From Schmidtea polychroa (taxonomy: Eukaryota): 64,000 bases of DNA. Positions 1 through 33,795 of this stretch are shown here, one piece after another; position 1 is the first letter of the stretch, and each line of letters starts with the position of its first letter. The stretch covers positions 87,150,397 to 87,214,396 of the forward strand of contig CM097887.1 in the NCBI GenBank assembly GCA_044892525.1. Direction: 5' to 3'. Made by a program: the position numbers and the translations under genes. The notes under the pieces are model-generated. The model searched no databases. It was given only the letters and a program-made list of their open reading frames with translations, and was not told the origin of the DNA.

Positions 1-627
1 TTTAAGCGGAGGGCCCGCAACTCAATCTGGTCTTGAGCATTCTGAAGTTGTAGTTGGGTGATTAACTTCATCTTCTTCTTCATCTCCGCTGGTGGGAACC
101 AGGTGCACTCGAAGTTCCGACAGTGGGCCTTGACTCGTGTCCACTTAGTCCGGTATTCGTCTACCTGTCGTTGTGCCTGTTCCCTATCGGCTCGCATCTC
201 TTCCAAGAGTTTCTGCACTAAACAAAGGTAAGATCAATGATTTTTACATCGACATCGAGGGTCGGGCATTATTATGGGCATTAAGGCTAAAAGAAAGTAA
301 TCCCCTCGTCGTAGTCCTTTGCTATGCGCACCCCAAGACCGAGACCTAGTTGTCTTACTCAACCTATAGGGTTGTTGTCGCTATAGAAATGTGTATTCAA
401 CAATGATGATAGTCCACGTCATGGACATTACAAACAATCCACACAATTAAATTGTCACCGACCATCAAGACACAAACAAACCTTAAATAATTATGATGAA
501 CTGTTAAGGCCTAACATATTTTATTCAATCCTGGATTAAAGAGGTTTAATCCAGTACATAATATCACCTAATACACCCGACACTAAGGTCAGCACAAAAT
601 GATTAGTTTTGATCCCGAGTTTTCCGC

Positions 628-1110
628 CTACTCTCCGAATCCCGCGCTCTCCTTGGTCGAGCGGGTGGACGTTCGCGCGCGTCCGCGTGTCCTTGGTCGT
701 CCTGGTCCTCGTTGAGGCCGTCTTGGGTATTTTAATCCACGCTGAAGAGCCGCGGTCCGTTTCGGGTGACATTGGGCTCGAGCGTAGCCGTCGCAGTCTT
801 CTACCTCGCCAGCCAGAGTCGCTTTCTCGAGCCGGTGTAATCGGTCTATCGCATCCGTCACTTCGTCAAAAGCGTCGATCAAGGCTAACGACGCGTGGTT
901 GAGGTACGGCTCCACCTTCGGAATTACGGGGATCACGTTCTGGTAAGTCCAATCATGGATCTTGTACCAGATCCATCTAGACCTTAGGCGAGCGATTTCC
1001 GATTCTTCCCTCAATCGGACGGCTTCATCTGCCTCTTCGCCGCTACCTCCGCGGTTCCAGTCAGTCGACGAGTGACCTTCTCGTATCTTCTTTGGTTCGG
1101 TACTGAGCAT
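628..1110 (-). CDS. LTR-encoded 160-aa ORF (3' LTR copy), unknown function, basic C-terminus
   Basis: ATG preceded by CTTTTATCATTACAG-CC; locally GC-richer; identical protein in both LTRs. Confidence 0.5.
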   Translation of the reverse strand: MLSTEPKKIREGHSSTDWNRGGSGEEADEAVRLREESEIARLRSRWIWYKIHDWTYQNVIPVIPKVEPYLNHASLALIDAFDEVTDAIDRLHRLEKATLAGEVEDCDGYARAQCHPKRTAALQRGLKYPRRPQRGPGRPRTRGRARTSTRSTKESAGFGE

Positions 1111-2629
1111 GGCTGTAATGATAAAAGAGGTATTAGGCGAATCTTTGTCCCTCTATCTGTGGTCGTTTACTCCAACATGTCTAAACCCCCCATTACGATT
1201 TACATCCAAGCATACTAGGCATTCAATCCCATAGACCAATGATTTTGTATGTGAAGTAGATTAAATTACTAATTAATTTCCATATTGATTTATTTATCCG
1301 ATTAGATCGCGGATTACTAAATTAAATTAAATTTGTACATTGACGGTTGGTAAGTAAATTAAATTTAAGACAAAGAAAAATTAAAATTTCGTAAATTAAA
1401 TTAAGACAAAAATTAGAATTTCGTAAATTAAATCAGAATCGCATATTTCAAAGATTTTGTTTAATTTGATTAAAAATTAAATTTGTTATTCTTAATGTCT
1501 AATATTCTTCAAATTTTGGTTTAACGATAATATGCAATTACTATGCTACTAAGACCTACTACGAGGAGGGACATTACTACATATCGAGAAATTTTACTCG
1601 GTCTCTAGTAATACCTAACCGTAAGGGTTGTGAGTAGCTCCACCATCATCCCAGTTGGATAAGTAAAAGGACAAAAAAAAATTGGTTAGTTTTCCATTTG
1701 TTTAATTTTAGGAATTCGATCCTTCCAGCTTTCAGTCTCAACGAGGGGTGTATTCGGATGAATTCTGCAACAGTCGTGGCCTAATAATAATCTAACGTAT
1801 GCCAATTCCCCCATTTGTGACGCATTTGTGCCCCAGATTATGGGTAACCCCATTCTCGTGTTTATGGATATACATGTGGGGGAATACAGGACAAAATGTT
1901 AATCTGAAGAGGATTTAGTGAGGCTTTCTGCTCATTCCTCTGTCTACATCGTTGTTAAGCATTTTGCGGTGACTGATAATCTTTCCTGTCTATAAGTATT
2001 ATAATTTTATTTAAAAAATAAAAATTTTGTTCTTATTAAATTTAATTGAATAACTCGCTTTAACGTTATGTAATAATTTTTATATGTTTTTGTCAATTGT
2101 TTTCTCTTACATTTACATAATCAACGATTGTAATCATAGGACCCATTACTACTCCTTACTTTTCGCCTATGATCATGAGGTATATGTGTCCTAGCTTGAA
2201 TGGTCGATGTGTGGGATCCATCTTGGGGAATAACAGGGTTAAATTCGCCAAGACATCGGGGTTTTAGTCAAGGATCAGGACTTCCGCTGTCGAGGCTGAT
2301 GGTGATTGGTTCGTTTGCGAACACGCATGCATCGTCCATTTGGTCGGTCAGGGTAATTTCAGTGAGGGCACCCCTTAGTATTCAGGGTTACTTCTATAAA
2401 TAGAACCAATTTTATTGGTTAGAGTTTTCATTAGGGAAAGAGCAATAATTGATGTCGGTTTTGAAGTTTTCTATTAATAGAAACATTTCAGAAAATCGAT
2501 ATATTGGTTGGAGTAAATATATATGGAACAAAGGGGGGTAGGATCATTGTAACTAAATTTAGACCTAGAGGAATCCCAAAGATCGCTAATTAAATAAAAA
2601 AAAATTTGTAATAATTAATTAATAACGCA

Positions 2630-3150
2630 ATGACAAGGGTAGTGATAATAATAGTGGCAATGATAAGAGTGGAAGTGTTAATGGTAATAGCGCTAAATCA
2701 GTAATATTAAGAACATTAATAATGATCATCCTAATAATAATAATAATGACAACAGTGATAGTAACTACAATAATAATCATAACAGTAATAATAATGATAA
2801 TTATTATAANNNNNNNNNNNNNNNNNNNNNNNNNNNNNNNNNNNNNNNNNNNNNNNNNNNNNNNNNNNNNNNNNNNNNNNNNNNNNNNNNNNNNNNNNNN
2901 NNNNNNNNNNNNNNNNNNNNNNNNNNNNNNNNNNNNNNNNNNNNNNNNNNNNTTAATAAGAATAANNNNNNNNNNNNNNNNNNNNNNNNNNNNNNNNNNN
3001 NNNNNNNNNNNNNNNNNNNNNNNNNNNNNNNNNNNNNNNNNNNNNNNNNNNNNNNNNNNNNNNNNNNNNNNNNNNNNNNNNNNNNNNNNNNNNNNNNNNN
3101 NNNNNNNNNNNNNNNNNATACTAATAACAATAAGGTAAATTATAATGATA
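2630..3150. repeat. AAT/ATA microsatellite inside 3' LTR, partly N-masked
   Basis: (AAT)n-like flanks around N runs. Confidence 0.85.
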
Positions 3151-5074
3151 ATAAGTGTGAGTTCATAGTATTATAAGATTACTACGGATGGGGGAATCGT
3201 TTACGGAAAGTTAAGGGTGTTGTTAAGGTACAAACAAAAAACATCTTTAAAGATTTTATATAAGGTAGATTTCAATATATATAAAGGTAAGAATGAACGT
3301 TTTCTAAATGATTTTAGTTTATCATAATATATCATTATATTGAATAAAATTATGAATAATATCAACAGGATTCATTAACATACTGAACAATAGTTTGTGC
3401 AATTAGCCGACTACGAGAGCCTCTGTATTAATTTGAGTCTGGGATATTTCCCGTTTAGATGATCCTAGTGGTCTGTTTCCTATATCAGAATTAAGTGTTG
3501 ATTTTTGGTATGTTGTTTACAGAAAAGTCGAGTTAATTAAAATTTTCCTACTTTCCCGACCCAACTGGATACGGTACGATAGGCCTTATTGTAGTATGTT
3601 TCCCGCGATTACTTTCCCGAAGTTTATTTCGTCCGCATAGTCCCTATGACTATGCCAACTACCGGTATGGGTTTACCGCCCTACTCCTGGTTAGAACCAT
3701 TAGTTCGTGGCGACCTCCGGTTAATAAAAGGGGTTTATATTTTATGCATGTGGGGTCGTAGACCCAAAAATGGTGCATGTAGTCTTTAAATTGGAAACAA
3801 GGCTGATCAACATAGTGACTATAACCCGTTCACAATGCTGGTCACTCTTATTTCGTGATAGTAAGATTAAACAAAACAAAAAAAAAAAAAAAAGTTGATC
3901 AATATAATGAAATGAAATCACAAATAATAAAATAACAATTATAAATTAAATAACAATCATGATAAAATTAATCAATCGTCCTTACAATTAGTGGGTTCCG
4001 AATTTTTCAAGAAAAATTTTGGCATAAAAAGATTAAATTGTGACTAAAATGCGTCGGTATATATACCTATTTTGTACACGTGTATGTATTGATGCATTAA
4101 AACAAACTCGAATTCTTTTTATTCCAGAAGTTTCTATTTTGTAATTTTGATATTTTTAATGGCGATTTTTGCGTCATAATTTTTATTTTTATTTTTAAAA
4201 TTTTATTTCCTAAATATTTTTTGCTAATTTTTCCTCCATGATGGATTTGGAACGGTTCCAGAACATTCCATATTACTTTTAATTCAATTTTTATTTTTAA
4301 CTGATATTTTACGAATTTCTTTTTAAGAAATTTTATTTTTAATACTAATTTATTTATTTTTCTAAATTTTATTGTTTAAGGTAGCTTTTATGATGGTCAT
4401 CGCCATTTTTATAGAATGTTCTGGGTTTTTCTGGAATGTTTTTGCTACTTTTACCATCTTTTAAGTTATTCGAGTTTGTTTTTTGTAACTCTGTGTTTAT
4501 TTGGCTATTTTGAGTTAGATTTTGCATAACTTCTTGCTTTTGTATAATTTTATTTAATTTCTGTGTTTTAGGTTTTTGTTGTTTTTTCCTTTAATTACTA
4601 TTGGTTATTTGGTGTAGTTTTCAATATTTAACTATACTTTTTGCTTTTTGCATGCTGTGTACCTACACATTTCGGTCACAATTAGAAGTTTGGGTCTAGA
4701 AATCAGTTCTAGCCCAACATAAAACACTCGGGGGCCCATAAAATTGCGACCCGCAATTTAAATCACAAGATGAAGAAAATTATTTTTCAGAATACTTGCA
4801 CTATATTACAAGTGCCTACATGCAAATTGGGTCTACGAGCTACAGGGTCGTGACCTCAATACCCACATACATAAAAAGGCTACTATTATACTACATTCTA
4901 CGGATGGGTTGAAAGATGAAGAAAAAGAACGACCGAGGTCGGTCCACATAAAAATAAAATTATCATGCTCAAGAATCAATGTTATTAGTCATAATCAGTC
5001 TCAGTCTTTGAAATCACGATTGTTTGTTAATGTTTTATAATGTCATGAAATGTTTATACTGTCGTGATGTCACA

Positions 5075-6061
5075 TTAATAGAATTCGGTTGTTCGGGATC
5101 TCGTCTCGATGACGGCTCTGGTTTCAATGTTTGGGGAAGATTTGAAGTAGCTTGGTTGGTTCGTTGTTTGGACTAGCTGTTCTTCCATTGGGATACGAAT
5201 ACTTCTTGATTGTTCTTTTAGTTTGAGGGTTTTGTTTCTTCCTTTACTGGAATTGGGTTTGAGTGCAATCAGGCTCAGTACGGTGATGTTTATCATTAGG
5301 CTCGCCGCTAATAGGATCAATATTTTGAGGGATTCAGACTCTCTCGGTTCTATTACTTTGGGTTTGTTCATAATTTCTTTTAATTGGGTTGTATCCGCCG
5401 TTTCTGATTTTTCGGGCTTATTGAATTTGTTTTCTTCTGAGGTGACAACTTTCTTTATTGCTTCTAGGGTTTTAATCATCTTCTCGGAGTTCGTTGGGTT
5501 TTTGTTTATGGTAGTTAGGATTTCCCTTGTCATTTCTTTCAAGGTTTTCGTTACCTCGTTTTTAATGCTGGGTTCCTCTTTGATGATGGAAGTTATTTTT
5601 CCTTTCATTTCCTCCAAAGATTTTACTACTATTTCGCAATTGCTTGAACGTCCATAGGCGGTTGCTGTTACCTGTTGTTTTATTTCCTCTAATATTATTA
5701 CCACCATTCTCATTGCGGCTGGATCTGTTTGGGATTCTCTCTTTGATTTCTGACTTTGACATTGTTTGGCTAATGTTGCTATCTGGGTTCTGATAACTTT
5801 CATTTCTTGTTCTAACATTGTTTTTATTGTCTGAGTCATTTGCACTTCCGTTGATCCTTCAGTTGTTGGTGGACATTGCGAACATTGCAACTTGATTTGT
5901 TCGCATTCCTCATTGGGTTTTTCGCAGATTGATTTAAAGCTACTACATGTGCTATCTTCTCTACGGTATGGGTATTCTTTTTGGCATCTGATCATTGATT
6001 CTTCTGCTTGCAGGGTTCTTGGCAATGCCATTATAATCATCACCACAATTAGGCTTCTCAT
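5075..6061 (-). CDS. Type I membrane protein with one TACI/BCMA-like Cys-rich domain (TNFR-like)
   Basis: Signal peptide, CQKEYPYRREDSTCSSFKSIC...C, helical stalk, TM LKILILLAASLMINITVLSLIAL, tail containing PMEE. Confidence 0.6.
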   Translation of the reverse strand: MRSLIVVMIIMALPRTLQAEESMIRCQKEYPYRREDSTCSSFKSICEKPNEECEQIKLQCSQCPPTTEGSTEVQMTQTIKTMLEQEMKVIRTQIATLAKQCQSQKSKRESQTDPAAMRMVVIILEEIKQQVTATAYGRSSNCEIVVKSLEEMKGKITSIIKEEPSIKNEVTKTLKEMTREILTTINKNPTNSEKMIKTLEAIKKVVTSEENKFNKPEKSETADTTQLKEIMNKPKVIEPRESESLKILILLAASLMINITVLSLIALKPNSSKGRNKTLKLKEQSRSIRIPMEEQLVQTTNQPSYFKSSPNIETRAVIETRSRTTEFY

Positions 6062-6145
6062 CTTTACATATATATATATATATATACTTTAATAATAATT
6101 ACTTGGCTTTATTTACAATTTATTTACACGGTTAGTTTGTCTCAT

Positions 6146-6913
6146 TTATTGGGAGTCACCGACCTCATCCCTTAATTTTACGGGAGGTTCAGGTGCTCGT
6201 CTTTTGCTCAACTCGTTCATTCTTATTACTTCGAGTTGGGTTGCTATCAACTGTCTCTTTAGTTCTGGTATTTCTTGTAATTGCTTCTCCTTACTTTTCC
6301 ATTTTCTCTGTTTGATGGTCATTGTCGTCTGCAGTGTTTGCATGCTTCGTCGTTTTTGATTTAAAATTCTCCGGTAATTTTCTTTCAACTTCCAATGTTT
6401 TTCTGTTTCCTCTCTTTGTTCCTTGATCTCTTCCTTGAGTTTTACATTTCTCTTCTCGACTTTTTTACTTTCTCGCACTATTGTTTTTGCATAAGCATAT
6501 TGTGCTTCCAACTGTTCGATATAGACTTGGTCGATATTCACAATCTTTTTCAACTTCCTTGTTTCTGATTTCCAATAATCTTCGATTACTGCCTGAGCTC
6601 TCAACTCTACTATCTCTTGTCTCAGGTTTTTATTTTCTGTCTCTTTTCGTTTCGATTCATTTATTTCCCTCAAAATTTCTTGCTTGACAGTGTTTATCAA
6701 TCGTCTTGATTGAACCATTTGCTGTCTCAATCTCGTAATCTCTACATTTTGATTTGCAATTTTTGTTTTGAACAGATTCTTGCTGACTCTCCATTTATTA
6801 CTATAATATTTCATTGGTTCTTGTTTCATTGGTATCATATCTTGGCTTTGTTCCGGTTGGTCGTTTGACTTTCTTTCGTTACTCGTTGATTCTCTTTCTT
6901 TTAAATAATTCAT
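6146..6913 (-). CDS. Coiled-coil accessory protein (~255 aa)
   Basis: K/E/Q-rich heptads with W-K motifs; likely ATG at 6913, preceded by TTTTTGTAG-AT. Confidence 0.7.
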   Translation of the reverse strand: MNYLKERESTSNERKSNDQPEQSQDMIPMKQEPMKYYSNKWRVSKNLFKTKIANQNVEITRLRQQMVQSRRLINTVKQEILREINESKRKETENKNLRQEIVELRAQAVIEDYWKSETRKLKKIVNIDQVYIEQLEAQYAYAKTIVRESKKVEKRNVKLKEEIKEQREETEKHWKLKENYRRILNQKRRSMQTLQTTMTIKQRKWKSKEKQLQEIPELKRQLIATQLEVIRMNELSKRRAPEPPVKLRDEVGDSQ

Positions 6914-7052
6914 ATCTACAAAAATATACACATCATATTTCCTTTCGTCTTCTTTTTATTTTGAATTTTTGGTTTTTGTAATTTTTTATTTGGTTTTGGT
7001 TTTGGTTTTTTTTTTTTTTTTTTTTTTATTTACAGGCAACATCTCTCCTCGA

Positions 7053-8651
7053 CTAAATCCATGTTGCGTTATTTGGTTCGTTATTTTCTTCGAAGCCTTC
7101 ATCATTTGTGACTTCGGCAGGCTGTGGCACTTGCAACGGGAACGGGTAGAGCGGCATTAATAATATTGGTGGTTGTCTCCTTAACCGATCTACTTCCTCC
7201 CGCAATTCCGTTGAGATGTTTATTTCTTCATCCAACAAAAACGTTAATCTACTTTCGTTTTCTATCATTTCGTCTAATTCCTCTTTCAATCGTTGGGTCC
7301 TTTCCAGCGCTTTTAGCTTCTCGATTTCTGCTCTCAGATTCGCTTCGTTTTCTTCGAAGCATCGTTTTATTATTTCTGTTTCCTGTTTGGCCTGTTGAAT
7401 TGCCTTATCGCACTCCTCTCTACATTTCGCATTAAGCTCAATCTGATGCTTCCAATTCACATCCCTTTGGGTGTACATACCTTTATATCCGTTCATCTCT
7501 TGATTGGCTTCCTCCACTTCTGTTTGTAATTGTCGGATCTGTCGATCTTGCTCTGTCAATTGTTGTTCCCATCTCTTTTCCTGGTATTCATACCTTCTTA
7601 TCTCTCGAGTCTGTTTCTTTATGACTCTCCGTCTACCGTCGCTGGTCCGCGTCTTGATTCTATGTTCTCTACTCAATCGGCTGATCTCATCCTTTTGGTT
7701 TTCTATCGTTTCCCACATTTTAAATTCGTCTCTTTCTATCAGTTTCATTGGTAACTGTCTTAACTCCTCTTTGGTCTCTTTCCAATTCTTTTTCCATTTT
7801 CGGGCTTGATGCTTGAGACATGTTTCGGTTTCCTCAAATTTCTGCTGTCGTTTTCTCCACTCTACTTCTTCTTCTTCTCGCTGTGTAGCCCTGGTTTCGT
7901 AAAATTCTTGGTCTGCTTTTCGTAATCGCAGTTGTTCCTTGCTACTGATTTTCCAATAGAGCACTTGAGTTTGACTTCCTAGGTATTTATACTTCCATTT
8001 CTGAGCTTGTATTTTTATTTGTGTATTAATTCGTTCTAATACGTTATCTTTAACAATTGGTTCTCTATGCGGTGTTCTCCTCCCTTGCCCTCTGACTTCG
8101 TTTAGGGTCTTTTTGCATCTTTCCCATCTTTCTTTCATCATTGCGCATTTGCCCTTTACTTCTTCTAGTTCGGCCTTGTAATTTTGTATTTGATGTTCGT
8201 GACTATCATTCTGCCTCGTTTGGAGGGTTTCGTATTTTCGTTTCCATTGTTGCGCTTGTAGTTTTATTCGTTCCGTTTTACGCTGTTCCTCCTCGTATTG
8301 CTCCTTTGCTTCTCTAATTTGTGTCTTCTGCATTATTATCTCTCCGCATAACCTAACTATCTCCATAATTCGCTGAGTTCGTAAATTCGAGAGCTCTTCC
8401 TCCAATTCTTGGTATGTTGAGGTATTTCTCACATCCTCGGTTAATTCCTCTACCTGTTTCATCCACTTCTCTTTTGTTGCTAGTGCTTCCGCCTTCTCCA
8501 CTTCTAATTCTTGTTGCTTTTTCTCATACATGGTTTTGTACATATCTATTTCTCTCTTTACTCTTTCTGCTTCGTAGGCTTGTATGATGGATTTGTACTG
8601 TTCGAGTTGTTGCATCTCGGTTTCCACATAGGTTTGTGATTCTTTATTCAT
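7053..8651 (-). CDS. Coiled-coil accessory protein (532 aa)
   Basis: Long intact ORF; repeated QAxxWKxKY motif; Pro-rich C-terminus. Confidence 0.8.
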   Translation of the reverse strand: MNKESQTYVETEMQQLEQYKSIIQAYEAERVKREIDMYKTMYEKKQQELEVEKAEALATKEKWMKQVEELTEDVRNTSTYQELEEELSNLRTQRIMEIVRLCGEIIMQKTQIREAKEQYEEEQRKTERIKLQAQQWKRKYETLQTRQNDSHEHQIQNYKAELEEVKGKCAMMKERWERCKKTLNEVRGQGRRTPHREPIVKDNVLERINTQIKIQAQKWKYKYLGSQTQVLYWKISSKEQLRLRKADQEFYETRATQREEEEVEWRKRQQKFEETETCLKHQARKWKKNWKETKEELRQLPMKLIERDEFKMWETIENQKDEISRLSREHRIKTRTSDGRRRVIKKQTREIRRYEYQEKRWEQQLTEQDRQIRQLQTEVEEANQEMNGYKGMYTQRDVNWKHQIELNAKCREECDKAIQQAKQETEIIKRCFEENEANLRAEIEKLKALERTQRLKEELDEMIENESRLTFLLDEEINISTELREEVDRLRRQPPILLMPLYPFPLQVPQPAEVTNDEGFEENNEPNNATWI

Positions 8652-8733
8652 TGTCTAAATAATTACACTATTACTACCACTATTATTTCATACATTTATT
8701 ATCTACACTTTATACACGGAATTTTAGTTTTTG

Positions 8734-9912
8734 TTATTGATCGGCGTAGCGAAATCCTTTGATTCCCTGCGCAATCCTCTGTCTGCACATCGGACATTCC
8801 TTTACTTTTCTACTACACGTGGCGCATGCGATCAAATGTCCGCATGGCATATGAATAACTTCTACACTCCTCTCCCAACACATAGTACATTTGATATCTC
8901 GTAAGATAGCTGTTTTGACCATTGATTCTTCTTTTATTTTTGTTTCTGGTTTTTCCCTATACTGAGTTATCGCTCTGATCATATCGTACGTTGTTGTTGA
9001 TATATGTACGTTTTTCTGTAGTCTCTCTCTAATCATTTTCTTTACCCTTGTCGTGCCTATTCCGGCTGCTTTCAACGCTCTGCGCATATTGGGCTTGTCT
9101 ACAACTTCGTCAACCTCTTCTTCTGTTACCAGTACTTCTGGATATTCGGTTTCTTGTTCGCTGCGATATAGGCACCATACTTGATGTCTAATTTCTGGTA
9201 TGCCTTCTTCCGGTAATCTCTGTTGGCTTTCGCACCTTTCACACTTGAGTATTTGCTTTTCTGTCAGGTAGAATCCTCTTATTGCTAGTTCAGGTCCTCT
9301 CGTATCATCTCCGAACGTTTTCATTCTATTATCTGCTATTTGCGTGAGGAATTCCCCTTCACAAGTTGGAACATACTCATCAACGATTTTGGTTATCGCG
9401 ATGCTCATTTTCCCTCCTTTTTCGTCTTCAGTTTTCAATTTCTCCAAGGCTTCGTATTTGATTTCCGGTTTGTTGTGTACATCAAATCCCAGTACGAATA
9501 GACAAGTTGGAAATCGTTTACGATGTTCCTCCTTTGGGTGTTCTCCTTTTTTCCATTCTACTAATTTCCCTTTACAGAAACGACACGTTACTTGATCGGG
9601 TATCTCTGGTTTTCCGGAGAAGAAAAATCCGTCGCGTGCTAGCGCTCGGCTCTGTTCCTTGGTGAAAATGGTCTGATGTTCAAATGACAGATATCTCTGG
9701 TTCTCACATCTGAATTGCTCATTATCTCCCAGTTTCAAATTTTCATGTACCAAATTATAATCATTTCCCATTCTTCGATAATACGCGTAACTACTTGGTT
9801 TTGTTTTGCTGACTTCCGCATCCTTCACTCTTTCTCTAGGTGACGTATTGTCCTCTTCCTCTCTCATTGTGATCGTTTTCTTTCGGATATTCGGTCTCTC
9901 TTGATTAATCAT
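8734..9912 (-). CDS. Inhibitor of apoptosis (IAP)-like protein: BIR, degenerate BIR, UBA-like, RING
   Basis: BIR motif GFFF..DQVTCRFC..W...H...FPTC; second CxxC..H..C; C-terminal RING CTMC..PCGH..CATC..CPMC. Confidence 0.9.
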   Translation of the reverse strand: MINQERPNIRKKTITMREEEDNTSPRERVKDAEVSKTKPSSYAYYRRMGNDYNLVHENLKLGDNEQFRCENQRYLSFEHQTIFTKEQSRALARDGFFFSGKPEIPDQVTCRFCKGKLVEWKKGEHPKEEHRKRFPTCLFVLGFDVHNKPEIKYEALEKLKTEDEKGGKMSIAITKIVDEYVPTCEGEFLTQIADNRMKTFGDDTRGPELAIRGFYLTEKQILKCERCESQQRLPEEGIPEIRHQVWCLYRSEQETEYPEVLVTEEEVDEVVDKPNMRRALKAAGIGTTRVKKMIRERLQKNVHISTTTYDMIRAITQYREKPETKIKEESMVKTAILRDIKCTMCWERSVEVIHMPCGHLIACATCSRKVKECPMCRQRIAQGIKGFRYADQ

Positions 9913-10052
9913 CTATAATAAATTTCATCATTTCTTTTTGCATTTTCTTTTTCTAATTTTTATGGTTTTGGTAAGTTACTTTACTGTATACAATAACTTT
10001 ATATTTACTTTACATCGTTTTTACAAAATATTTACAGTTCCCTTCTATCCGT

Positions 10053-11477
10053 CTATCGTATTTCTATTGTTGGTCCTTCCTCGTCTAGTTCGATTAGGAA
10101 GAATATAGTGTCCTTTTCTATGTAGGACCCGTCATTAAACTGGTATAGCTGCATAAACTCTGCTACTCCTACCGCAGGATTAACCTCTGTAATCGGTTTA
10201 TTCCATGCTGGACTTGATGCTCGACAGCACATTATATGTGTCTTTTTTGATCCCAAGAGAGATATTTTTAATCTATGTCGGAATGGCCATGCTATTAGGT
10301 CGTCAAAATCTCCTTTACAGATTTGCATATATATGGCCATGCACCGATCTTTAAACTTTCCCTCACCATTTGGAAACCATCTCAATTTCATCTTTTATCC
10401 ATGTTTCTTGGCGTAGAATGGTTTGCTCACTATCGTTGTCTGGATTCCTTGCTTTGCTCGCTCCATTATTTCTGTTATTCCTTGGATTTTCCACATATAT
10501 GGCAATATTGGTAGTTCCTCTGTTGTCAGTTCCTTTGCAGTCCATTTGGTTTGTAGTTTAGTTACTTCGACTAATTTGTCGTCTAATTTCAACATCCTTT
10601 GTCTTACGGCTTCTCTCGTATTTTTGAAGCTTTCCTGTGAGCTCAGCATTTCTTTTATCATGATTTTATGTGATTTGAGTTCGTCTTTAACATCTTCGAT
10701 TGCCCTTGCTGTTAACTCTATTGCTCTCATCATCTTTTGCATGTGCTCGAATGTATTCTCCTCCACATGCTTCTTCATTTCTTCTGCTGGTAATTGTACT
10801 CTACAATCGAATGTTACCATTGGGCATTTTATCGTCTTTCTCGTGCATATCTCCCAATGTTCATTTAATCTGACGTTGTTAATTTCTCCACACTCGTTTG
10901 GGCATCTCCCTGTATATTCGTCGCAAATCCGTCTTTCTACTGCGTTTCGATGTTCCATTTCGATTTCTCTCCAATTAGCAGTTTCTCCGCAAAATTCGCA
11001 TTTTTCCGTTCGCGCTTCGCATTCCCCTTTATGTTTGGTTTTCTCTTTTCGTAAAAACTTTACCGTACATGCTTCGCATTCCAATTCTAGATATTCGCAT
11101 ACGTCTGTATGGGCTCTTAACTCCTTTACTCGACCTGTCCATTCGCATGACCTTTGGGTGCATCTTATTTTCACTTCTCTGATTTCTCGGTTCATTGCTC
11201 TATCCGGTATCGTGCCAGTGGGAACCAACTTAAATGCTTCTCCACATCCTGGACAAGTTTCTCGCTTTAGCTTGGCTAATCTTATAGCACACCCTCGGCA
11301 TAATCTACACCCGCATCGAGTTTGACTTGCTCCAATCAGTAGTCTTCTACATGCTGCATCGGCACATAATAGTCTCTCTTCGAACTCGTCCGGCTTGGCT
11401 TGATATTTTCTCATCAATTCATAGTTAATCTTTTGTTCCTCTGTTTCTCTCCGGTTCTCTTCCGCTTTGTTTTGCAT
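10053..11477 (-). pseudogene. TRAF-like adaptor/E3 (RING, TRAF Zn fingers, coiled coil, MATH) with one in-frame TAA at 10395-10397
   Basis: Reads PFYAKKHG*KMKLRWFPNG, where TRAFs have PFY...GYKM.LR..PNG; both halves are in the same frame; the MATH has the DDLIAWPF motif. Confidence 0.9.
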
Positions 11478-11566
11478 TCTACAATGATGACTTTTAATCT
11501 TGGGATTTCTACTTGGTTATAACTCTATTTATTTACAGGATTATTTACATTTCACTCCTTTCTCTC

Positions 11567-12022
11567 CTATACATCTACCGTCGAGTCCGGTTCCCCAGTT
11601 CCTGGTAGCCCGGTCATCCATTCGACTAAACTGGCAATATCATCATGTTGTCGATTTTCGTGTAACCTTCTAATTTCTTCCGCTTGCCATCTGATTTGGC
11701 TTATTAACTGATTGTTATTGTATTCTAGTTGCGCGATTATTTGGTGTTGTTCCTCTATTTTTGTAATATATATTGCATTTCTATTAATACTCTCTATCAA
11801 CGCCGTTTGGTTTCGTACCCAGTGCTCTTGAGTCTGATTTGTCAATTGGGTCATTAATTCACACTGTGCCCTCCACATGGATCCTGTTGGCTGACTCGGC
11901 TGGTTTGGCACGTTCATTTCCATCATGTCTACTGGATGTACATTCATAAGCGGCTGTTCTCTTACTTCAACAACATGTGGTATCCCATTTGGGTGTTCTT
12001 GCTCTTCGTTTCTCTGGTTCAT
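11567..12022 (-). CDS. 151-aa accessory ORF, Q/N-rich with coiled coil, unknown function
   Basis: ATG ORF with the same flanking motifs as its neighbours. Confidence 0.65.
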   Translation of the reverse strand: MNQRNEEQEHPNGIPHVVEVREQPLMNVHPVDMMEMNVPNQPSQPTGSMWRAQCELMTQLTNQTQEHWVRNQTALIESINRNAIYITKIEEQHQIIAQLEYNNNQLISQIRWQAEEIRRLHENRQHDDIASLVEWMTGLPGTGEPDSTVDV

Positions 12023-12170
12023 TCCTATTTATAATACATGGTCATCATACTTGTTTTTGATTTTTCTACATATTGTTTTAATTTACTACTTTTATTTTGT
12101 ACATATTACTACTATTATCACTACTTTTATCATTTCATTTATACATTATTTACAACAACTCCTCCTCTCG

Positions 12171-15100
12171 TTATACTAGTGTCGCCATGGGGCCGGAATG
12201 CAGCGTGCGCATTCCCCCATATCTTTCGTCCGTTAGTCGGTATATATCGACTTCGTGTGTCCATTCGTTAGGTGTGGGTATTTTTGGTAGTTCCGACATC
12301 CACAATCCGCTGGATTTGGGATCTCTTACCACCTCGTACTCTTCTAGATTCAGATTTTCTGTTGGAATACCGTATTCGAATTTTTCTACCTTGGGCCATT
12401 TTCTTCGGTTCCCGGGTTTTTGTTTACAGCTTTTGGTGGTTCTTATCCATTGGATCATTGCTAACGCTATTATCGTACTTACTATCGCGCTAGTTATCCA
12501 TATCATCTTTGTGATTATCGTTGTTCCATTATTTGCTTTTTCTGTCGTTAACATTATACTACCTGTGGTATTCGTTTCTGGTGCTTTGGTTTTCTTGAAA
12601 GCTTGATGTAGTCGTTCCTTCTCCTTCTCTGTTAGGTGACTGTGATTTTCTCGTTTCTCTCCCCCTTCTTGGTCTCGGGGTATCCATGGTATGTTTATTA
12701 ATTGGGCTTTTTGTCGAGTTATTGGTTGACATACGCTGGTTCCTCTTCCTTTCTTAAGGATACATACTTGGTATCGCTCTTTTCGTTTTCCTGTCTCCAT
12801 TTTAACGTCTGCACCTTGGTCTATCGGTGTTGTTGTACAGTCGATTATTCCCGTCTTATCCATTACACATATCCTTATGATTGGTTCTCCTTCTTGGTTT
12901 TTGACTGTAATTACCTCTTCACCTTTCTTGTTGAGGTTAATAGTTATCTGCACTTCCCGTCTTTCGTCTTTAATTACTTCGTTAATCCATGTTGTTGTTG
13001 TTATTAATTCGGTTTGATTTAGCTCTGTTGTTGTTTTTGTACTAACTGATTTCTTGGGCTTCTTGGTTGTTTTCTCCGTCAATGGACCTTGTTTAATTGC
13101 CATACTCCTTGGTTTGTCTTTTCTTGGTGCAGTTCTTGTTCCTTTACATACTATTATCCCTTGTGTTCCTGCGCATACCACAGTAGGGGTATTTGGTTTG
13201 ACCTCTCCCCAGAAGAATTTGTGATCCTGTGTCATATCAGTTACTATGCATATATCTCTGTCTTCTCTGATGCATACATGTGTAATTGATCGACTCCCTT
13301 TGTCCTCTATTTCGATATATTCTTCCAGAATGTTAAGTTGAAAATGTACTCCGGTTTCATTGGCTCTTTCTAGTTCCATTTCCTCTGTTGTTATGTCTAT
13401 ACAGATGTCATAATCTCCGCATAGCCCGGGGTCTCTTTTTTGGCTGCTAAAGATCTTTCCTTTTGTTATCGATCTGAAATCACAACTTACTCCTGTTCCT
13501 TCCATTAGTTGCACACATATTCCGACGGCGTTTCCGTCGTAATCGCTGACTTTTATCATAAATACTTCGCCTTCTTGGAAAGCTTCTCTTACGATTCTCA
13601 TATTTTTTGTTTCCGTTAAACAGATAGATGTTAATATTATAAATATTCTTTGTAGTAGGATTGGCTGGATTTGATTTCGAAACACTATGCTATGTAGTGG
13701 GGACTTTCGTTTTTTGTTTTCTGTTTTGTCGAATCCTTGATCTTCACCTCGACATTGGTCATCTTCGTCCTCTTCCAACTCCTCATCATCATCCGTTGTT
13801 TCTCCGCCCTCCGGATTTTGTTCTCTGTCGTTTTCCTCTGGGTTGTTATCGTTATCCCCCATCCTTTCGTCGTCGTCATCGTCGTCATTCCTCTCACCCG
13901 GGGTTTTCCCAAAAATGTCGTCCTCGACATTTGTCGCTTTGATCATCTCTTCGTATTTTTTAATTATTTCTTTTTTATCGTTGTGGATACTTTCTCGTTC
14001 TTCTTTGGTTCCTTGATATTTCCGTTGTTTCCGGTGCCATTCCCACACTAGTATTTCTAGTTGCTTTTTCATCGTATGTGCTTTTGTGCATTTCCACCAA
14101 TTACCTGTCAATTCTGCTCTATTTCTTTGTAATATTGCTTTAATGGTTTTTGGCATTGGTGGTCTTGAGTATATGGCGCTTCTTAGTACGATATTTTCGT
14201 TGTTCTGAAATTGATTTATATCAATTACTTCCGCTTTTAATTCGTTTTGTTTCCATTTGATTAACATTGCTGCGGTTCTGTCTAAGTTTCCTCTGATGGC
14301 TTCCAGAATTGTTTCAATGCTCTGTCTCAACACCTCAGCCTCTTCAGCGGTTGCATTTCCCGTGATAAAGTTTAGTATACTAGGTCTTTTTGACCTGACG
14401 GCATAACGTAAGATGGTTCGTTGTTTGTTATCTTTTTCTTTCAACGTGGATCCCGTTCTCAATAATTCTCTGAGTACTTCTCTTGACGCGCCTATTGCTA
14501 TGGCTTTCATCAGTGGAGTTTTTCCTTTACTGTTTTTGACGTTTGTTGATTGTTTGCAGTTTTCCATTATTCGTATAATCTCTAATGCTCGTTTTTCTTG
14601 TCCTGCTTTCACTGCATGATGGATTGGCCAGTTATTACTCAAATCACTTGTTAGGAACATGATTGGTAATCTCCGGATTAGTTCATATATTTGAGTCGGT
14701 ATTTGTAATCCTTCGGCATATCTTCGTCCTTTCGCATATCTTTCTGCTACTAACACTAGTTTGCCCAATACTTGGTATTTATTGGTTATATCGGCCCATT
14801 CTGGTACAATTTCTCGTGCTATTTTTACTGTCATATTCCATGTTGCTTGGCTCCTTGCCATTGCGTCAGCTTCGCTTTCTGCTTCGGTTCCTTTATGGGC
14901 GCTGCTGCTTGTTTCTCCCCTCAACATGAATATCCGTCTTGTCTGTGATCTAGTTAATCTACCGCTTACTTCTGGTTCCGTTGTGGCATTTGTTTGTGAT
15001 CTCGTGATTATCTTCCTTGTTTCTGGGTCTTTAGTGGCAGTTTTCGCTACTGCTTTACATCGACATGTATTAACGTAAATGGGTCTAATTAGTGGGTTGT

Positions 15101-16151
15101 TAACCAACTTTACTCTAGCGTTGTTCTCGTTTACATAAATGATTTCATATGGCCCTCTGCCATTACGTTGTAATTTCTTTGCTGTTCCTGGGATTAATTC
15201 GGGTGTTTCTATAATAACCCAATCTCCGACTTTAAATTGATGGTTTTGCACGTTCTTCTTTTTATCATGCAATTCCTTATAACTTTCTTGGTTGAATCGG
15301 ATGTTCATCCCTGCGGTTTTCCATATTTCTTGCATTCTCTCTTTGAACTTTGTCACATAATCATCTATCTCCATATATTGTGAGATTGGCGGTTGGTATT
15401 CGAGATCCATTGGCATGTTGCATTCCCTTCCGTACATGAGTTTAAACGGACTCATTTTCGTTGCTGAGTGTATTGACATTCGGTAAGCCATTAGGCACAA
15501 CTTAATATATTCATCCCAATCCTTTTGATGTTTACTTACATAATTGGACATCATGTCTATTAGTATGCCGTTAAACCTTTCTGTCTGCCCATTCGTTTGC
15601 GGGTGGTATGGCGAGGTTCTCAATTTGGCAATTCTGAAGTAGTTTGTTACTTCATTTATTATCTCGCTCATGAAGTTAGTTCCTTGGTCTGTTAAGATTT
15701 GTTTTGGAGTTCCATACCTGCAGCAGATCTCTTCTACTAATATCCTTGCAACCGTTCGTGCTTTTTGGTCTGGCATCGCAAATGCTTCAGGGAACTTAGT
15801 CAGATAATCAGTTATTACCAATATATACACATTTCCACTGTTAGTCTCTGGTAGTGGTCCAACTACATCCATTGCAATCATTGTCATCGGTTCTGGCGGT
15901 ATCGGCATTGGTTTCAATGGCGGCTTTAGTTTACTGCCCGTTGTTTTTCTGGTTGCGCATATCAAGCAGTTCTTTATCCATTCTTTCACGTCATCGCTCA
16001 TATTTGGCCAGTAATATTTCTGTTTGAGCCTTGCTTCTGTTTTCTTGGCTGACATATGTCCGCCCAATTTACCGTCGTGGTATTGAATCATAATTTCTTT
16101 CCGTCTACTTTCTGGTAGACACATCAGTCGTTTGTCGCCATCCATTACCAA
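12171..16151 (-). CDS. pol: Polyprotein C-terminal part: integrase, ankyrin repeats, acidic linker, second type I membrane protein
   Basis: HHCC zinc motif, D-D(35)E core (AMDVVG, TDQGTNF, QTERFNG), GPY, KGKTPLMKA ankyrins, TM near the C-terminus; joins the upstream ORF across an A8 run at ~16186-16193. Confidence 0.92.
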   Translation of the reverse strand: MVMDGDKRLMCLPESRRKEIMIQYHDGKLGGHMSAKKTEARLKQKYYWPNMSDDVKEWIKNCLICATRKTTGSKLKPPLKPMPIPPEPMTMIAMDVVGPLPETNSGNVYILVITDYLTKFPEAFAMPDQKARTVARILVEEICCRYGTPKQILTDQGTNFMSEIINEVTNYFRIAKLRTSPYHPQTNGQTERFNGILIDMMSNYVSKHQKDWDEYIKLCLMAYRMSIHSATKMSPFKLMYGRECNMPMDLEYQPPISQYMEIDDYVTKFKERMQEIWKTAGMNIRFNQESYKELHDKKKNVQNHQFKVGDWVIIETPELIPGTAKKLQRNGRGPYEIIYVNENNARVKLVNNPLIRPIYVNTCRCKAVAKTATKDPETRKIITRSQTNATTEPEVSGRLTRSQTRRIFMLRGETSSSAHKGTEAESEADAMARSQATWNMTVKIAREIVPEWADITNKYQVLGKLVLVAERYAKGRRYAEGLQIPTQIYELIRRLPIMFLTSDLSNNWPIHHAVKAGQEKRALEIIRIMENCKQSTNVKNSKGKTPLMKAIAIGASREVLRELLRTGSTLKEKDNKQRTILRYAVRSKRPSILNFITGNATAEEAEVLRQSIETILEAIRGNLDRTAAMLIKWKQNELKAEVIDINQFQNNENIVLRSAIYSRPPMPKTIKAILQRNRAELTGNWWKCTKAHTMKKQLEILVWEWHRKQRKYQGTKEERESIHNDKKEIIKKYEEMIKATNVEDDIFGKTPGERNDDDDDDERMGDNDNNPEENDREQNPEGGETTDDDEELEEDEDDQCRGEDQGFDKTENKKRKSPLHSIVFRNQIQPILLQRIFIILTSICLTETKNMRIVREAFQEGEVFMIKVSDYDGNAVGICVQLMEGTGVSCDFRSITKGKIFSSQKRDPGLCGDYDICIDITTEEMELERANETGVHFQLNILEEYIEIEDKGSRSITHVCIREDRDICIVTDMTQDHKFFWGEVKPNTPTVVCAGTQGIIVCKGTRTAPRKDKPRSMAIKQGPLTEKTTKKPKKSVSTKTTTELNQTELITTTTWINEVIKDERREVQITINLNKKGEEVITVKNQEGEPIIRICVMDKTGIIDCTTTPIDQGADVKMETGKRKERYQVCILKKGRGTSVCQPITRQKAQLINIPWIPRDQEGGEKRENHSHLTEKEKERLHQAFKKTKAPETNTTGSIMLTTEKANNGTTIITKMIWITSAIVSTIIALAMIQWIRTTKSCKQKPGNRRKWPKVEKFEYGIPTENLNLEEYEVVRDPKSSGLWMSELPKIPTPNEWTHEVDIYRLTDERYGGMRTLHSGPMATLV
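14355..14640 (-). other. About 3 ankyrin repeats
   Basis: NNWPIHHAV, KNSKGKTPLMKAI, KDNKQRTILRYAV. Confidence 0.8.
15030..16100 (-). other. Integrase domain
   Basis: H-H-CxxC, DDE, GPY motif. Confidence 0.95.
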
Positions 16152-19100
16152 TAGCCATTCTTTCTCGATTGTATATCTTTGACGATTTTTTTTCCATATG
16201 TTCTTTCAATCGATCATCGTTGTTGAATATTTTCATATCGTTTTTATCCAGGAATTCGATTATTAGTTTCAATTCGCTGTCTTCCTTTTGTTCGTTCTTT
16301 AGATTGGTAAAATCGATATCTTCCGCGATTATCATGCATATTCGCCTGACGTCATGATCCATGAGTTCTTCAAATACGAATCTCGACATGCAATCCGCAT
16401 TTGCGTTTGCTTTTCCTGACTTGAACTTGATGTATGGGGAATATTCTTGTAATTGCATTGCCCATCTCATTAATCGACTAGATGCTTCTTTATGTTGGCC
16501 CAACCAAACTAGAGGTTGATGGTCCGTAGTAATAATTATCTCGTGTCCCCATAATAAATATTTGAAATGTTTTATCGCCTGAATTATTGCTAAGGCTTCT
16601 CTTTCTGTGACCGAGTAATTCTTCTCGTGTTTTTTGAACGTCTTGCTATAATATCCGATGACTCTTTCTCGTTTCTCCTCATCCCATTGTCCTAGCACAG
16701 CTCCTGATGCATATCCACTTGCATCGGTTGCTAATAGAAAGGGCTTCTTGAAATCTGGATGTATTAAGATAGGTGAGGCTATTAACTTGTCTCTTAGCGA
16801 CTCGAACGCTATTTGCTGTTCTCTATCCCACAGAAATGGAGTGTCTTTTTTCGTTAGTTCCTGAATTGGTTTTGCTATAGTTGCATAATTTTTGATGAAC
16901 TTGCGGTAGTATCCGCATAATCCCAGAAATTCTTGTACTTGAGTCACGGTCTTCGTTATCGGACAATTCTTTATCTTTTCAACATTTCTCGGATCTGGTT
17001 CCTTTCCTTTTGCCGACACAATATGTCCTAAAAATGTGACTCTCTCCTTTGCCCAATCGCATTTTGACGGTTTCAATTTCAGCTTCCATTGTTTCAGTCT
17101 CACGAATACGTTCCTGATGTCGATTAAGTGTTGTTCGAACGTACCTGAATATATTAGCAGATCATCAATATACACCATACATTGTTTAATTCCGTGTGTC
17201 ACAAAGTTCATACACCTTTGAAACGAAGCAGCTGCGTTTGTTAATCCAAATGGCATCTTTTTAAACTGATATAAATCTTTTCCTATGGTAAAGGCTGTCT
17301 TTTCTCGGTCTTCTTCTTTAACTTTAATTTGCCAGTATCCGCTCTTTAGATCTAAAGATGTAAAGTATGCTGCTCCATGCAACATCTGTAACATTTCGTT
17401 TATGTCTGGCAGTGGATATGTATCCCTTTTTGTTACTGCGTTCAACCTCCGATAATCAATACAAAATCTCTGTGTACCGTCTTTCTTTTTGACCATTACT
17501 ACTGGGAATTGCCATGGTGAACAGCTAGGTTCTATTACTCCGGCATCTAACATCTTTTGTACTTCTTCCTCTGCTACCGTTTTTTGTGCTTCGGCTAATC
17601 GATATGGTCTTAACGTTATGGGTGTCTCATCTGTTAATGGTATAATGTGTTGAGTTACATCGCTAGTACCCAAATCCAAATCTGAAGCCGCAAAAATATT
17701 TTTAAATTCAATCAGTAGTTGTCGGAGTTGTTCCTTTTCGTCTTCATTTAGGAGTTCGCTATCGATGGTCCATAATTCTTTTTCGTCTGCTCCCTCGCTT
17801 TTTATCTCCGGCAGCTCAATGTTCATCATTGGTGTGAGTTTTCCAAGTCTCTCGTTTTCGTAGATTACTTTATCTTCCTCATCAAAATTGGTGATGTTGA
17901 TGGGTATCTCGTTATCCTCATTTATACTGACAATTTCTCTTGCCAATGGCAGCTCCCTTCTCTTCTCGAATTTTTGACTTGGTTCAAATATCATATCTCC
18001 TTTGGCTTCGTTATCGACCTTGACATAACATATTGTCTGGGTACGTGCTGGTATTATCATTTTTTCGGAGCATCTCACTTCTGTTCTCATTGTGCATATC
18101 TGTCCAGTTTTATCTTTTAATTTCATGGAACTCAAATCAATCACAATTTCTTTCAATAATTCCGGCATTACATCTGTTCCAATTATACATGATACGCTTA
18201 GCTGTCTAATGACTGCGAGGTACGTTGTAACTTTAACCCCTTTGTATTCGATCGTTGACCATACTCTTCCTACTACCGCTATGGATTGTTTGCTGCATGT
18301 TATTACATCCATGGTTGTTTCCTCAATGCATGGCCATAGTCTTCCTGGTAGCATATTCATATTTATTGCTGAGATATTTGCTCCGGTATCAATCATTGCA
18401 TCCATCTCTATTCCGTTTACTTCGACCGTGATAGTTAATGATGGTCCTGCTGGTGTCTGCAATACCGCGATCGTTCGTGTCTCCACCTCTTGCCCCACAT
18501 TTTTAACTGGCTTGATCATTGTTGGGTCCAGTGCTGCCCAATTTGGTTCATAAGCCATTGGATAAATATTCGGTACGGGTAATCTTCCGGTTCCCATTCT
18601 TATCCGTTCTCTCATTGTTCCTGGTCGTCGCATTGGTCCATTAGTTGGTGCCTGTAAATATGGTGATCCCCATGGTTTCATTTTTTCGTTTTCCCAAGTG
18701 GCTGTATTTTTGTTTATCAACATTACTCCTCCTTGATTATTATCGTCGTCGTCGAAATCATCATTGTCATCACTATCATCGTCTCGTCTGAGATTCATCC
18801 ACTTTTTCCACTTCCCGGTTCTTTTCGCTTTCTCTTGAGTTCTTTCTGCTTCTAATCTCATTATCACTTTGAACTTACGTCCGACTTCTTCGTCTGTTCC
18901 TTTCATTTGCGTTAATATTTTCAACAATCTTTTTATTCGATGAATATCCTTTGAGTGTCCATGCAACACCATTGTTTTCGCTAAGAACGGTAAGAATCCA
19001 ATTGCAAGTTTCCAATTTACTTTTCTCTCGCGCTTATAGATGTCAAAACATGCTAGCATCTGAGTTAGTATCACTCTAACTATTTGTATTATCAGAATAA

Positions 19101-27264: not shown

Positions 27265-27581
27265 TGAAGTCTTTTACGACTCCTCGACGCCTGGGCTTTT
27301 ACACCGTTACGCCATATAATCCATTATTACCCATCAACGCTTTGGTTTGTTGGACCTCCACGTCGGCATCGGCTTCCGACCGGTTTAATCATAATTTGAA
27401 GTCTTTTACGACTCCTCGACGCCTGGGCTTTTACACCATTACGCCATATTATCCATTGTTACCCATCAACGCTTTGGTTTGTTAGACCTCCACGTCGGCA
27501 TCGGCTTCCGACCGGTTTAATCATAATCTGAAGTCTTTTACGACTTCTCGACGTCTGGGCTTTTACACCATTACGCCATAT
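27265..27581. repeat. 132-bp tandem repeat, about 2.4 copies, in the 5' leader
   Basis: Units start at 27265, 27397 and 27529. Confidence 0.9.
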
Positions 27582-28994: not shown

Positions 28995-29477
28995 CTATGG
29001 GAGGTATACTACAACTCTTTTTCGAACGTTCGTATCGCATGCATTACATCGTTTTACTTTTTCTGCGCAATTCTCGCAGTAGCATAAATGGCCACAGGGT
29101 ATCATCATTACCCGTATTTCGTTGTTTCTACATATAAGGCATTTTCTAAAATCTTTAACTTGGTGTTCAATTGCTTCTCTGATTTCGTCTTCGATTGTTT
29201 CCATTTTTATCATTATCTCTTGCCATTTGATGTTAAACTTCGCATTATCCAATCGTAAATTTTGGATTTGGTAAACTCTTTCAGTAGTCAGTTCCGCATT
29301 GGGTGTTGCTATTCTCATCATAACACATACTTCCTCAGCTTGCGGTCTTGGTTTCAAGCTCAGTTCATCTTGGATTTTTAATAACTGGTCTGCTTTTCGA
29401 TTTAGTCGTTGTAGTGAATTGCTTGTCAAATTAACAAAGTTTTCGAGTTTCTTTACAATGTAGCCGGCTAATTCCAT
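28995..29477 (-). CDS. ORF upstream of gag: coiled coil plus IAP-type RING
   Basis: CLIC..MIPCGH..CENC..CNAC..VVVYLP at the C-terminus. Confidence 0.85.
   Translation of the reverse strand: MELAGYIVKKLENFVNLTSNSLQRLNRKADQLLKIQDELSLKPRPQAEEVCVMMRIATPNAELTTERVYQIQNLRLDNAKFNIKWQEIMIKMETIEDEIREAIEHQVKDFRKCLICRNNEIRVMMIPCGHLCYCENCAEKVKRCNACDTNVRKRVVVYLP

Positions 29478-33762: not shown

Positions 33763-33795
<33 letters not shown>

Follow-up and report, generated by a model that had tools for sequence, protein, structure and literature searches.

The window, a stretch of 64,000 nucleotides from Schmidtea polychroa, carries a Burro-like gypsy element of about 36 kb on the minus strand, and all features located below lie on that strand. 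The 5′ LTR (30211–35682) is preceded in coordinates by a PBS-like stretch at 30189–30206, and the 3′ LTR (1–4719), which extends beyond the window, is 99.3–99.8% identical to it. Each LTR measures about 5.5 kb, the two LTRs are 30.8–31.0 kb apart, and the internal region is about 25.5 kb long. The copy number is high, with 453 candidate loci, of which the 40 scored gave 97–100%. The LTR interior of all 16 copies examined is unlike that of the window copy, and an older subfamily of the element is represented in 2 of the 40 LTR flanks.

Domain matches define a Gag-MATH-fusion glycoprotein-PR-RT-RNase H-IN-ankyrin coding region at 12171–26186; the polyprotein is split over three frames in the window copy and forms one open frame of 4672–4791 codons in other copies. 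A 5′ ORF of 160 aa at 28995–29477 contains a RING domain (Pfam) and has AATAAA 12–13 nt past its stop. The accessory ORFs downstream of the polyprotein encode a 151-aa protein without a Pfam family (11567–12022), a TRAF-like protein (10053–11477; interrupted by an in-frame stop in the window copy but 474 aa long in several others), a 392-aa IAP-like protein with BIR and RING domains by Pfam (8734–9912), a 532-aa protein without a Pfam family that is charged and coiled-coil-like by eye (7053–8651), a 255-aa protein without a Pfam family (6146–6913), and a last protein of 328 aa with, by eye, a hydrophobic N-terminus and one hydrophobic stretch (5075–6061). Protein searches gave one mollusc IAP and no homologue of the 532-aa ORF.

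The planarian Burro/GYPSM1 elements are described as larger than 30 kb including LTRs, with an internal part of about 25 kb, a polyprotein ordered Gag-MATH-env-PR-RT-RH-IN-ankyrin in a single frame, and as present in hundreds of copies, with RING, BIR and coiled-coil/Smc-like accessory ORFs and a BCL2-like motif between MATH and env (PMC6431247, the section on these elements). The window element resembles them in size, LTRs, domain order, RING and BIR (Pfam), coiled coils (by eye) and copy number. The comparison is by description, and that published section gives domains only, without junction motifs or regulation. At the position of the BCL2-like motif there was no Pfam match, and a BH2-like stretch was recognized by eye only. 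The C. elegans gypsy element Cer1 likewise has an accessory protein, produced from a spliced, SL1 trans-spliced mRNA; it differs in having a single accessory mRNA, and the part of its description that was available mentions no stop-proximal motif (PMC3315495).

A search of the minus strand found TGTAAATA at 12147, 11542, 11530, 10029, 7027, 6121 and 6110. These are all the positions of the original prediction, whose spacers of 16, 17, 16, 18 and 17 nt after the stops at 12171, 11567, 10053, 7053 and 6146 were the same on remeasurement. The first box past the polyprotein stop (12147–12154) is present in 17 of 18 copies and is followed by TGTATAAA at 12138–12145. The 151-aa ORF is followed by two boxes, 17 and 29 nt past the stop (11530–11549); the first is found in 19 of 19 copies, and the second overlaps AATAAA. 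The TRAF box (10029–10036) is exact in 18 of 19 copies, and the box behind the 532-aa ORF (7027–7034) lies 16 or 18 nt past the stop in the copies; the AATAAA behind it is peculiar to an A-run of the window copy. The 255-aa ORF has two boxes, 17 and 28 nt past the stop (6110–6128), both overlapping AATAAA, the first in 20 of 20 copies. The doubling at 11530 and 6110 was confirmed, as was the TGTATAAA at 17 nt past the IAP stop (8734), which is followed by TGTAGATA at 26 nt (together 8700–8716) and kept at 17 nt in 18 of 19 copies. GA-richness, previously noted for four of the spacers, proved not to be a required part, the spacers of the IAP gene, the 255-aa ORF (cc255) and all of family B (see below) being A/C-rich.

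Two further sites depart from this arrangement. The last ORF is followed at 14 nt by a degenerate AGTATAAA (5053–5060), which reads AGTAAAAA in most copies and lies 17–18 nt past the stop in the older subfamily; its sequence is off the Pumilio consensus, and it was rejected as a Pumilio element. The 5′ leader contains two TGTAAATA boxes (29816–29846) with no long-ORF stop attached; of 16 copies examined, the 15 that have a PBS all carry two or three TGTANATA there.

Conservation across copies was high. TGTAAATA is retained in 108 of 115 junction copies, and in 19 copies the variable sites amount to 3/64 within boxes versus 114/469 elsewhere in the junctions, the spacer length being held while the spacer sequence changes. 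A search with MATH uncovered another family in this genome (family B; the window element belongs to family A), whose accessory proteins are only 27–45% identical to those of family A. Family B carries TGTATATA or TGTAAATA at 13, 18, 15 and 22 nt past four of its five internal stops, retained in 15–16 of 16 copies, and TGTA(N)ATA also lies 16–18 nt before three of its ATGs. The stop-proximal box is absent from the fifth family B internal junction, from the last ORFs of both families and from both RING ORFs. Searches for further families by PBS pattern, env, LTR and Bcl-2 yielded the older subfamily, unrelated elements and a third Burro-like family, which has a single accessory ORF and lacks the box (4 loci). 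The "fixed" spacing originally proposed holds within family A and fails in family B; the spacing is constrained at 13–22 nt, not fixed.

The placement of the boxes past stops is not due to chance. In the window as a whole, the 8-mer is mildly enriched (15 versus 7.0 expected; 2 of 100 shuffles reach 15). Calculated post hoc, the probability of this placement is close to 1e-13 if the junctions are modelled as a Markov chain and close to 1e-6 once presence of the box is taken as given; the 13–22 nt range was chosen after family B had been examined, and these p-values are overstated because the copies are related. Over 11 junctions, TGTANATA occurs at 19 sites versus 1.49 expected (maximum of 6 in 3000 shuffles), with position 5 free (A10, T6, C2, G1). 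The antisense count is 1 versus 0.34 expected. Family A junctions have 13.2 sites per kb, coding DNA one site in 20.4 kb, and the 5.5 kb LTR none. TGTA alone is also enriched in the junctions (39 versus 17.1 expected), and ATA occupies positions 6–8 in 19 of the 39 TGTA sites (p = 5e-12, likewise overstated).

Predicted splice acceptors, consisting of AG 0–3 nt before the accessory ATGs, lie at 12025, 11479, 9913, 8655, 6916 and 6062, and at 29478 for the RING ORF. The AG is altered in 2 of 186 cells across copies, and AG also precedes 7 of 30 host GPCR first methionines. Among the matches listed for contigs of five runs, whose library types were guessed, there was no canonical splice joint and no junction poly(A) end.

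The boxes are conserved UGUA(A/U)AUA sequences 13–22 nt past stops, and we consider it slightly short of an even chance (about 0.47), judging from sequence, that they are Pumilio response elements repressing or destabilizing each mRNA. The Pumilio response element (PRE) has the consensus UGUANAUA, and Pumilio acts in the 3′ UTR (PMC5758885, in the part available). This consensus with a free position 5 is matched by the 19 sites; the sense strand and the place downstream of the stop, as judged from the gene layout, also fit a PRE. The likeness extends to several sites per junction and to a host protein with the canonical code. The arrangement differs from known PREs in belonging to a mobile element, which repeats the candidate site once for every cistron and keeps its distance to the stop nearly constant. 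The repeats of the host Pumilio, assembled from exons, carry S-R-Q, N-Y-Q, C-R-Q, N-H-Q, C-R-Q, N-Y-Q, S-N-E and N-Y-Q, eight triplets that we take to equal the human PUM recognition code. Of the two readings originally offered, the Pumilio element is favoured, since only position 5 varies and ATA at 6–8 stays.

If so, each accessory ORF would become the first OR​F of its own spliced mRNA by way of the AG before its ATG. The path of the ribosome takes in the initial 15 nt of a 3′ UTR, and miRNA sites close to UTR ends are more effective (PMC4532895, in the portion available). The first site would then be the nearest position not swept by the terminating ribosome and possibly the best place in a long 3′ UTR. 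Host Pumilio bound there in the cytoplasm may recruit CCR4-NOT, by analogy with its action elsewhere, and, speculatively, the IAP, TRAF and polyprotein might thereby be held down in stem or germ cells that are rich in Pumilio.

Some observations do not sit easily with the Pumilio reading. The first IAP box TGTATAAA and the AGTAWAAA of the last ORF are off consensus though conserved. One family B box, at 13 nt, lies within the 15-nt ribosome path. The sites before family B ATGs and in the 5′ leader are less readily explained by a role in the 3′ UTR. The end-of-UTR rule derives from work on miRNAs, not on Pumilio.

A nuclear 3′-end signal, the other reading originally offered as UGUA plus AAUAAA, appears unlikely. 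Here CFIm25 would bind the UGUA repeats, cleavage would be directed some 20 nt further on by an AAUAAA that overlaps them or lies close by, and the downstream AG would serve the next gene in an operon-like manner by trans- or cis-splicing. The reading still stands because the host has a CFIm25 gene, and the TGTA enrichment and the AATAAA found 26–33 nt past the stop in all five short junctions (55–89 nt) agree with it. Furthermore, AATAAA and a GU-rich tract stand between the last family B ORF and the 3′ LTR, so these elements might have internal poly(A) sites. The reading is weakened by the AATAAA count, which is not enriched in the 11 junctions (12 versus 10.7 in shuffles) and is zero in two of them. 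CFIm25 is not known to read beyond UGUA, which leaves ATA at 6–8 unexplained, and it is not evident why a factor of the nucleus should stay at least 13 nt from a stop. Known CFIm25/AAUAAA signals share with the junctions the repeated UGUA near AAUAAA; they differ in that here the full 8-mer is conserved and tied to the stop codon, and the S. mediterranea poly(A) signals show no upstream UGUA enrichment in the portion of PMC5068929 that was available. RNA-like contigs (library type guessed) span four junctions, and the three T-run ends among the matches listed (run X5; 5747, 8564 and 8932) are all within ORFs. These ends follow A-rich coding DNA and may reflect internal priming.

Somewhat less probable still is a protective role, in which the boxes, bound by Pumilio or a different UGUA reader, would mark stops as genuine, so that nested mRNAs whose kilobase-long 3′ UTRs extend over the downstream genes would escape nonsense-mediated decay. 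In this view the polycistronic genome of Burro elements would be punctuated by a PUF element measured off by the ribosome, with Pumilio bound where mRNA enters the terminating ribosome. Such a role would account for the upper spacing limit in junctions of 55–160 nt, for spacers kept in length with free sequence, and for the boxless last and RING ORFs, which have their own AATAAA or a short tail. The precedent is the Rous sarcoma virus RSE, a position-dependent element immediately behind the gag stop with kilobases of genes beyond; it differs in being a single 400-nt element bound by PTBP1 (PMC4764554, as far as available), as opposed to 8-nt A-rich boxes, one per cistron. Pyrimidine-rich PTBP1 sites of the RSE type were not found in the junctions, which are 48% A and 10% C. 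The family B 369-aa ORF has downstream genes yet no box, and none of the papers listed in the literature search describes Pumilio as a shield against nonsense-mediated decay. A DNA element, namely a TATA-like or forkhead site in an internal promoter of the next gene, seems improbable. The boxes are strand-specific, as a TATA box is, and lie chiefly ahead of a further gene; GTAAATA, which agrees with the forkhead consensus, is found 15 times versus 8.0 expected (51 of 3000 shuffles), and TATAWAW 18 times versus 10.9 (101 of 3000). However, these enrichments are far below that of TGTANATA, TGTATATA and TGTACATA are no forkhead sites, and forkhead RYAAAYA is broken in 9 of the 19 sites by T, C or G at position 5. 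Moreover, the distance to the next ATG ranges from 25 to about 140 nt, the distance to the previous stop is tight, and tandem boxes lie 10–14 nt apart. The notion that the boxes have no present function, being relics of one duplicated junction cassette or the usual host 3′ UTR, is largely refuted and the least probable of all. Some spacers are similar by eye (purine-rich start, GTTG end), but once the boxes are masked, z is above 2.5 in only 2 of 55 junction pairs, and the boxes outlast their flanks and survive in family B. The box is not a host norm because none of 75 host stops (30 GPCR, 45 TRAF) has it at 13–22 nt. The functional role originally argued for is backed by the conservation of the boxes among copies and between families, as well as by this absence from host stops.

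Four other candidates were rejected. A shared RNA fold did not emerge (z above −1 in 9 of 10 junctions, −2.0 in one), and read-through fusion is ruled out by junction lengths that differ in frame. A single miRNA seed fails on the TGTATATA variant, as does the planarian m6A motif DRAYW (PMC13594981, in the part available).

The literature searched, with subscription journals outside its scope, contained no paper that treats this motif in Burro elements and no account of how Burro controls six or seven accessory genes, including regulators of apoptosis and immune signalling. Salvetti in 2005 is said to have found Pumilio essential for planarian stem cells; a Pumilio site on each gene, if true, would wire Burro elements to that factor. 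The protective role, if true, would give Pumilio a new task and the retroviral RSE a counterpart among invertebrates; the copies, in their hundreds and each with about eleven sites, could also draw Pumilio off stem-cell mRNAs. The junctions are 55–170 nt long, and the natural spacer series of 13–22 nt with free sequence bears on how near a stop a PUF site works, whether repressing or protecting. Two single contigs from run X1 also differ in their spacers, 16 and 18 nt by eye, and the box, or the first five letters of it, follows again.

The box past the stop codons of the element is a real, selected RNA motif that is specific to the element; the type of motif is known and its arrangement is unusual. 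All seven boxes of the original prediction were found at their positions (12147, 11542, 11530, 10029, 7027, 6121, and 6110, minus strand), as were the spacers of 16, 17, 16, 18, and 17 nt past the stops and the variant TGTATAAA at 17 nt past the IAP stop. The last ORF (328 aa) had AGTATAAA at 14 nt past its stop and no other box, and the RING ORF of the window was followed by AATAAA and no box. The count of the 8-mer in the whole window was enriched only twofold; the P value for box placement in a post hoc test was ~1e-6, even conditional on the presence of the 8-mer.

The element that carries the boxes is a giant LTR retroelement of the gypsy type, encoded on the minus strand of the window, with a 5′ LTR of ~5.5 kb at 30211–35682 and a 3′ LTR of the same ~5.5 kb type running from 4719 off the left window edge, the two being 99.3–99.8% identical. 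The LTRs enclose the RING ORF, six accessory ORFs including TRAF and IAP, and a region encoding Gag-MATH-fusion glycoprotein-protease-RT-RNase H-integrase-ankyrin. This layout agrees with that of the planarian Burro/GYPSM1 elements in section 7 of PMC6431247 and is the basis for taking the host to be a planarian. The family of this element (family A) has a high copy number (453 candidates; the 40 scored were all 97–100%). The window copy is disrupted in the polyprotein and TRAF; in other copies the polyprotein frames reach 4791 codons and TRAF has 474 aa.

We took 21 family A loci, of which 18–20 were anchored per junction (the stretch from a stop to the next ORF). The boxes proved conserved across copies: 108 of 115 junction copies carried the first box of the window unchanged, and 113 had a box-like 8-mer at 15–18 nt past the stop. 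Variable sites amounted to 3/64 in boxes vs 114/469 elsewhere in the junctions (19 copies, five junctions; Fisher p 7e-5), and to 3/55 vs 68/355 for A/T sites alone (p 0.006), both tests overstating the significance because the copies are related. An older subfamily (L046 and L053; 58–88% amino acid identity) retained TGTA at 17–18 nt and a full box past the 255-aa ORF. A box pair in the 5′ leader (29816–29846, ~320–340 nt past the PBS) was kept in 15/15 copies despite differing flanks.

A second family of the same genome (family B; 434 candidates), whose exemplar L069 came from a MATH search, has the gene order of family A minus IAP; its integrase region is 57% identical to that of the window and its accessory proteins 27–45%. 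Its boxes were TGTATATA at 13 and 45 nt past the polyprotein stop, TGTAAATA at 18 and 28 nt past the 119-aa ORF, TGTATATA at 15, 29, and 41 nt past TRAF, and TGTAAATA at 22 nt past the fourth accessory ORF; the 369-aa ORF had no stop-proximal box. These boxes were retained in 15–16 of 16 copies, and none was found past the last ORF (0/16 copies) or the RING ORF (0/3). Only one of the five family B junctions lies within 16–18 nt, which indicates that the spacing is constrained and not, as had been claimed, fixed.

Judged from its sequence, the junction motif is the Pumilio element, UGUANAUA (PMC5758885). The pattern TGTANATA occurred 19 times in 11 internal junctions vs 1.49 expected (3000 dinucleotide shuffles, maximum 6), with A10, T6, C2, and G1 at position 5, and its first site lay at 13–22 nt, a range chosen post hoc, in 9/11 junctions vs 0.15 expected. 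Bare TGTA was also enriched (39 vs 17.1 expected), and ATA came after 19 of these 39 sites. The antisense motif was not enriched in the junctions, nor was the motif depleted in coding DNA (1 vs 1.66 expected). Of the double likeness first proposed, the Pumilio half is favored and the AATAAA half is weakened, AATAAA showing no enrichment (12 vs 10.7 expected in the 11 junctions). The same genome encodes CFIm25 and also a Pumilio protein; the recognition residues in the eight repeats of this Pumilio are S-R-Q, N-Y-Q, C-R-Q, N-H-Q, C-R-Q, N-Y-Q, S-N-E, and N-Y-Q, as in the human code.

Our leading interpretation, held tentatively at a probability of a little under one half, is repression. Splicing would place each accessory ORF first on a separate mRNA, Pumilio would occupy the first free stretch 3′ of the stop, and the bound protein would repress by way of CCR4-NOT. 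The ribosome path covers the first 15 nt of the 3′ UTR, and miRNA sites work better close to the UTR end (PMC4532895); we infer by analogy that this rule may extend to Pumilio. A CFIm25/AAUAAA 3′-end signal is unlikely: AATAAA lies at 26–33 nt past the stop in 5/5 short junctions, but it lacks enrichment, the AATAAA downstream of the 7027 box is part of the window copy's own A-run and differs in most copies, and UGUA is reported not to be enriched upstream of planarian poly(A) signals (PMC5068929). Such a signal and Pumilio binding may occur together. A protective role resembling that of the RSV RSE (PMC4764554) would account better for the upper spacing limit and for the missing boxes past the last and RING ORFs; it is quite unlikely, requiring a Pumilio function for which literature listings and abstract beginnings gave no precedent. 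The same kind of sources contained no earlier description of the box.

Forkhead and TATA patterns were weakly enriched in the 11 junctions; a promoter of the next gene fits poorly and is improbable. A relic or a host norm, also a poor fit, is hardly credible. TGTANATA stood at 13–22 nt past none of 30 GPCR and 45 host TRAF stops (the latter 29 distinct flanks), and the first 150 nt past all 75 held 2 sites; these stops were defined by long open frames without annotation, and the GPCR and TRAF families stand for part of the transcriptome. No interpretation explains why one family B junction lacks a box, why the IAP box (TGTATAAA) is conserved although it departs from the consensus, or why there are a leader pair and TGTA sites ahead of some putative acceptors.

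No box was present at 4 loci of a third Burro-like family, which has a single accessory ORF, and a smaller env-gypsy family (L021, L023, L025, L031, L033, and L035) had TGTATAAA 20 nt past the integrase stop in five loci and 25 nt in one. No common RNA fold of the junctions was found. Host TRAF is greatly expanded (G000 C2, many loci, L073–L100), with near-identical 3′ flanks. A multi-copy Bcl-2-like ORF adjoins Polinton-like genes (L150–L154, ~4720–5140, sense strand); in many copies an in-frame TAG precedes more BH2-like coding, the candidates being a shared old stop, read-through, or a small intron.

Contigs of the sequencing runs X1, X2, and X5, none recorded as RNA, span four junctions. 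Beyond the polyprotein and 151-aa stops, two single X1 contigs have different spacers, 16 and 18 nt long, that lead into the box, either whole or as its first five letters. Among the contig ends listed, no canonical splice joint was found, and three T-run ends of X5 lay within ORFs, adjoining A-rich DNA. X1 and X2 contigs depart from the element at 9942 and 10982, placing the TRAF segment in another context.

AG lies 0–3 nt 5′ of ATG in all seven accessory ORFs of the window (RING counted), and 2 nt ahead of ATG in an LTR-internal ORF (31411–31893 and 628–1110) whose 160-aa product has an arginine-rich end. The LTR interior (30448–34900) is unlike that of five aligned family A copies (from L182–L197), the match being confined to the LTR end and internal region (76–91%), and LTR anchors taken from the window anchored 0/16 copies; the window copy thus seems to join a different LTR type to the same internal region. 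A 132-nt tandem repeat (2.5 copies, 27265–27581) lies between the RING ORF and gag, and a short inverted repeat, ATTGCGGGNCGCAAT, common to both families, directly precedes the 3′ LTR (window 4744–4758; L069 8189–8204).
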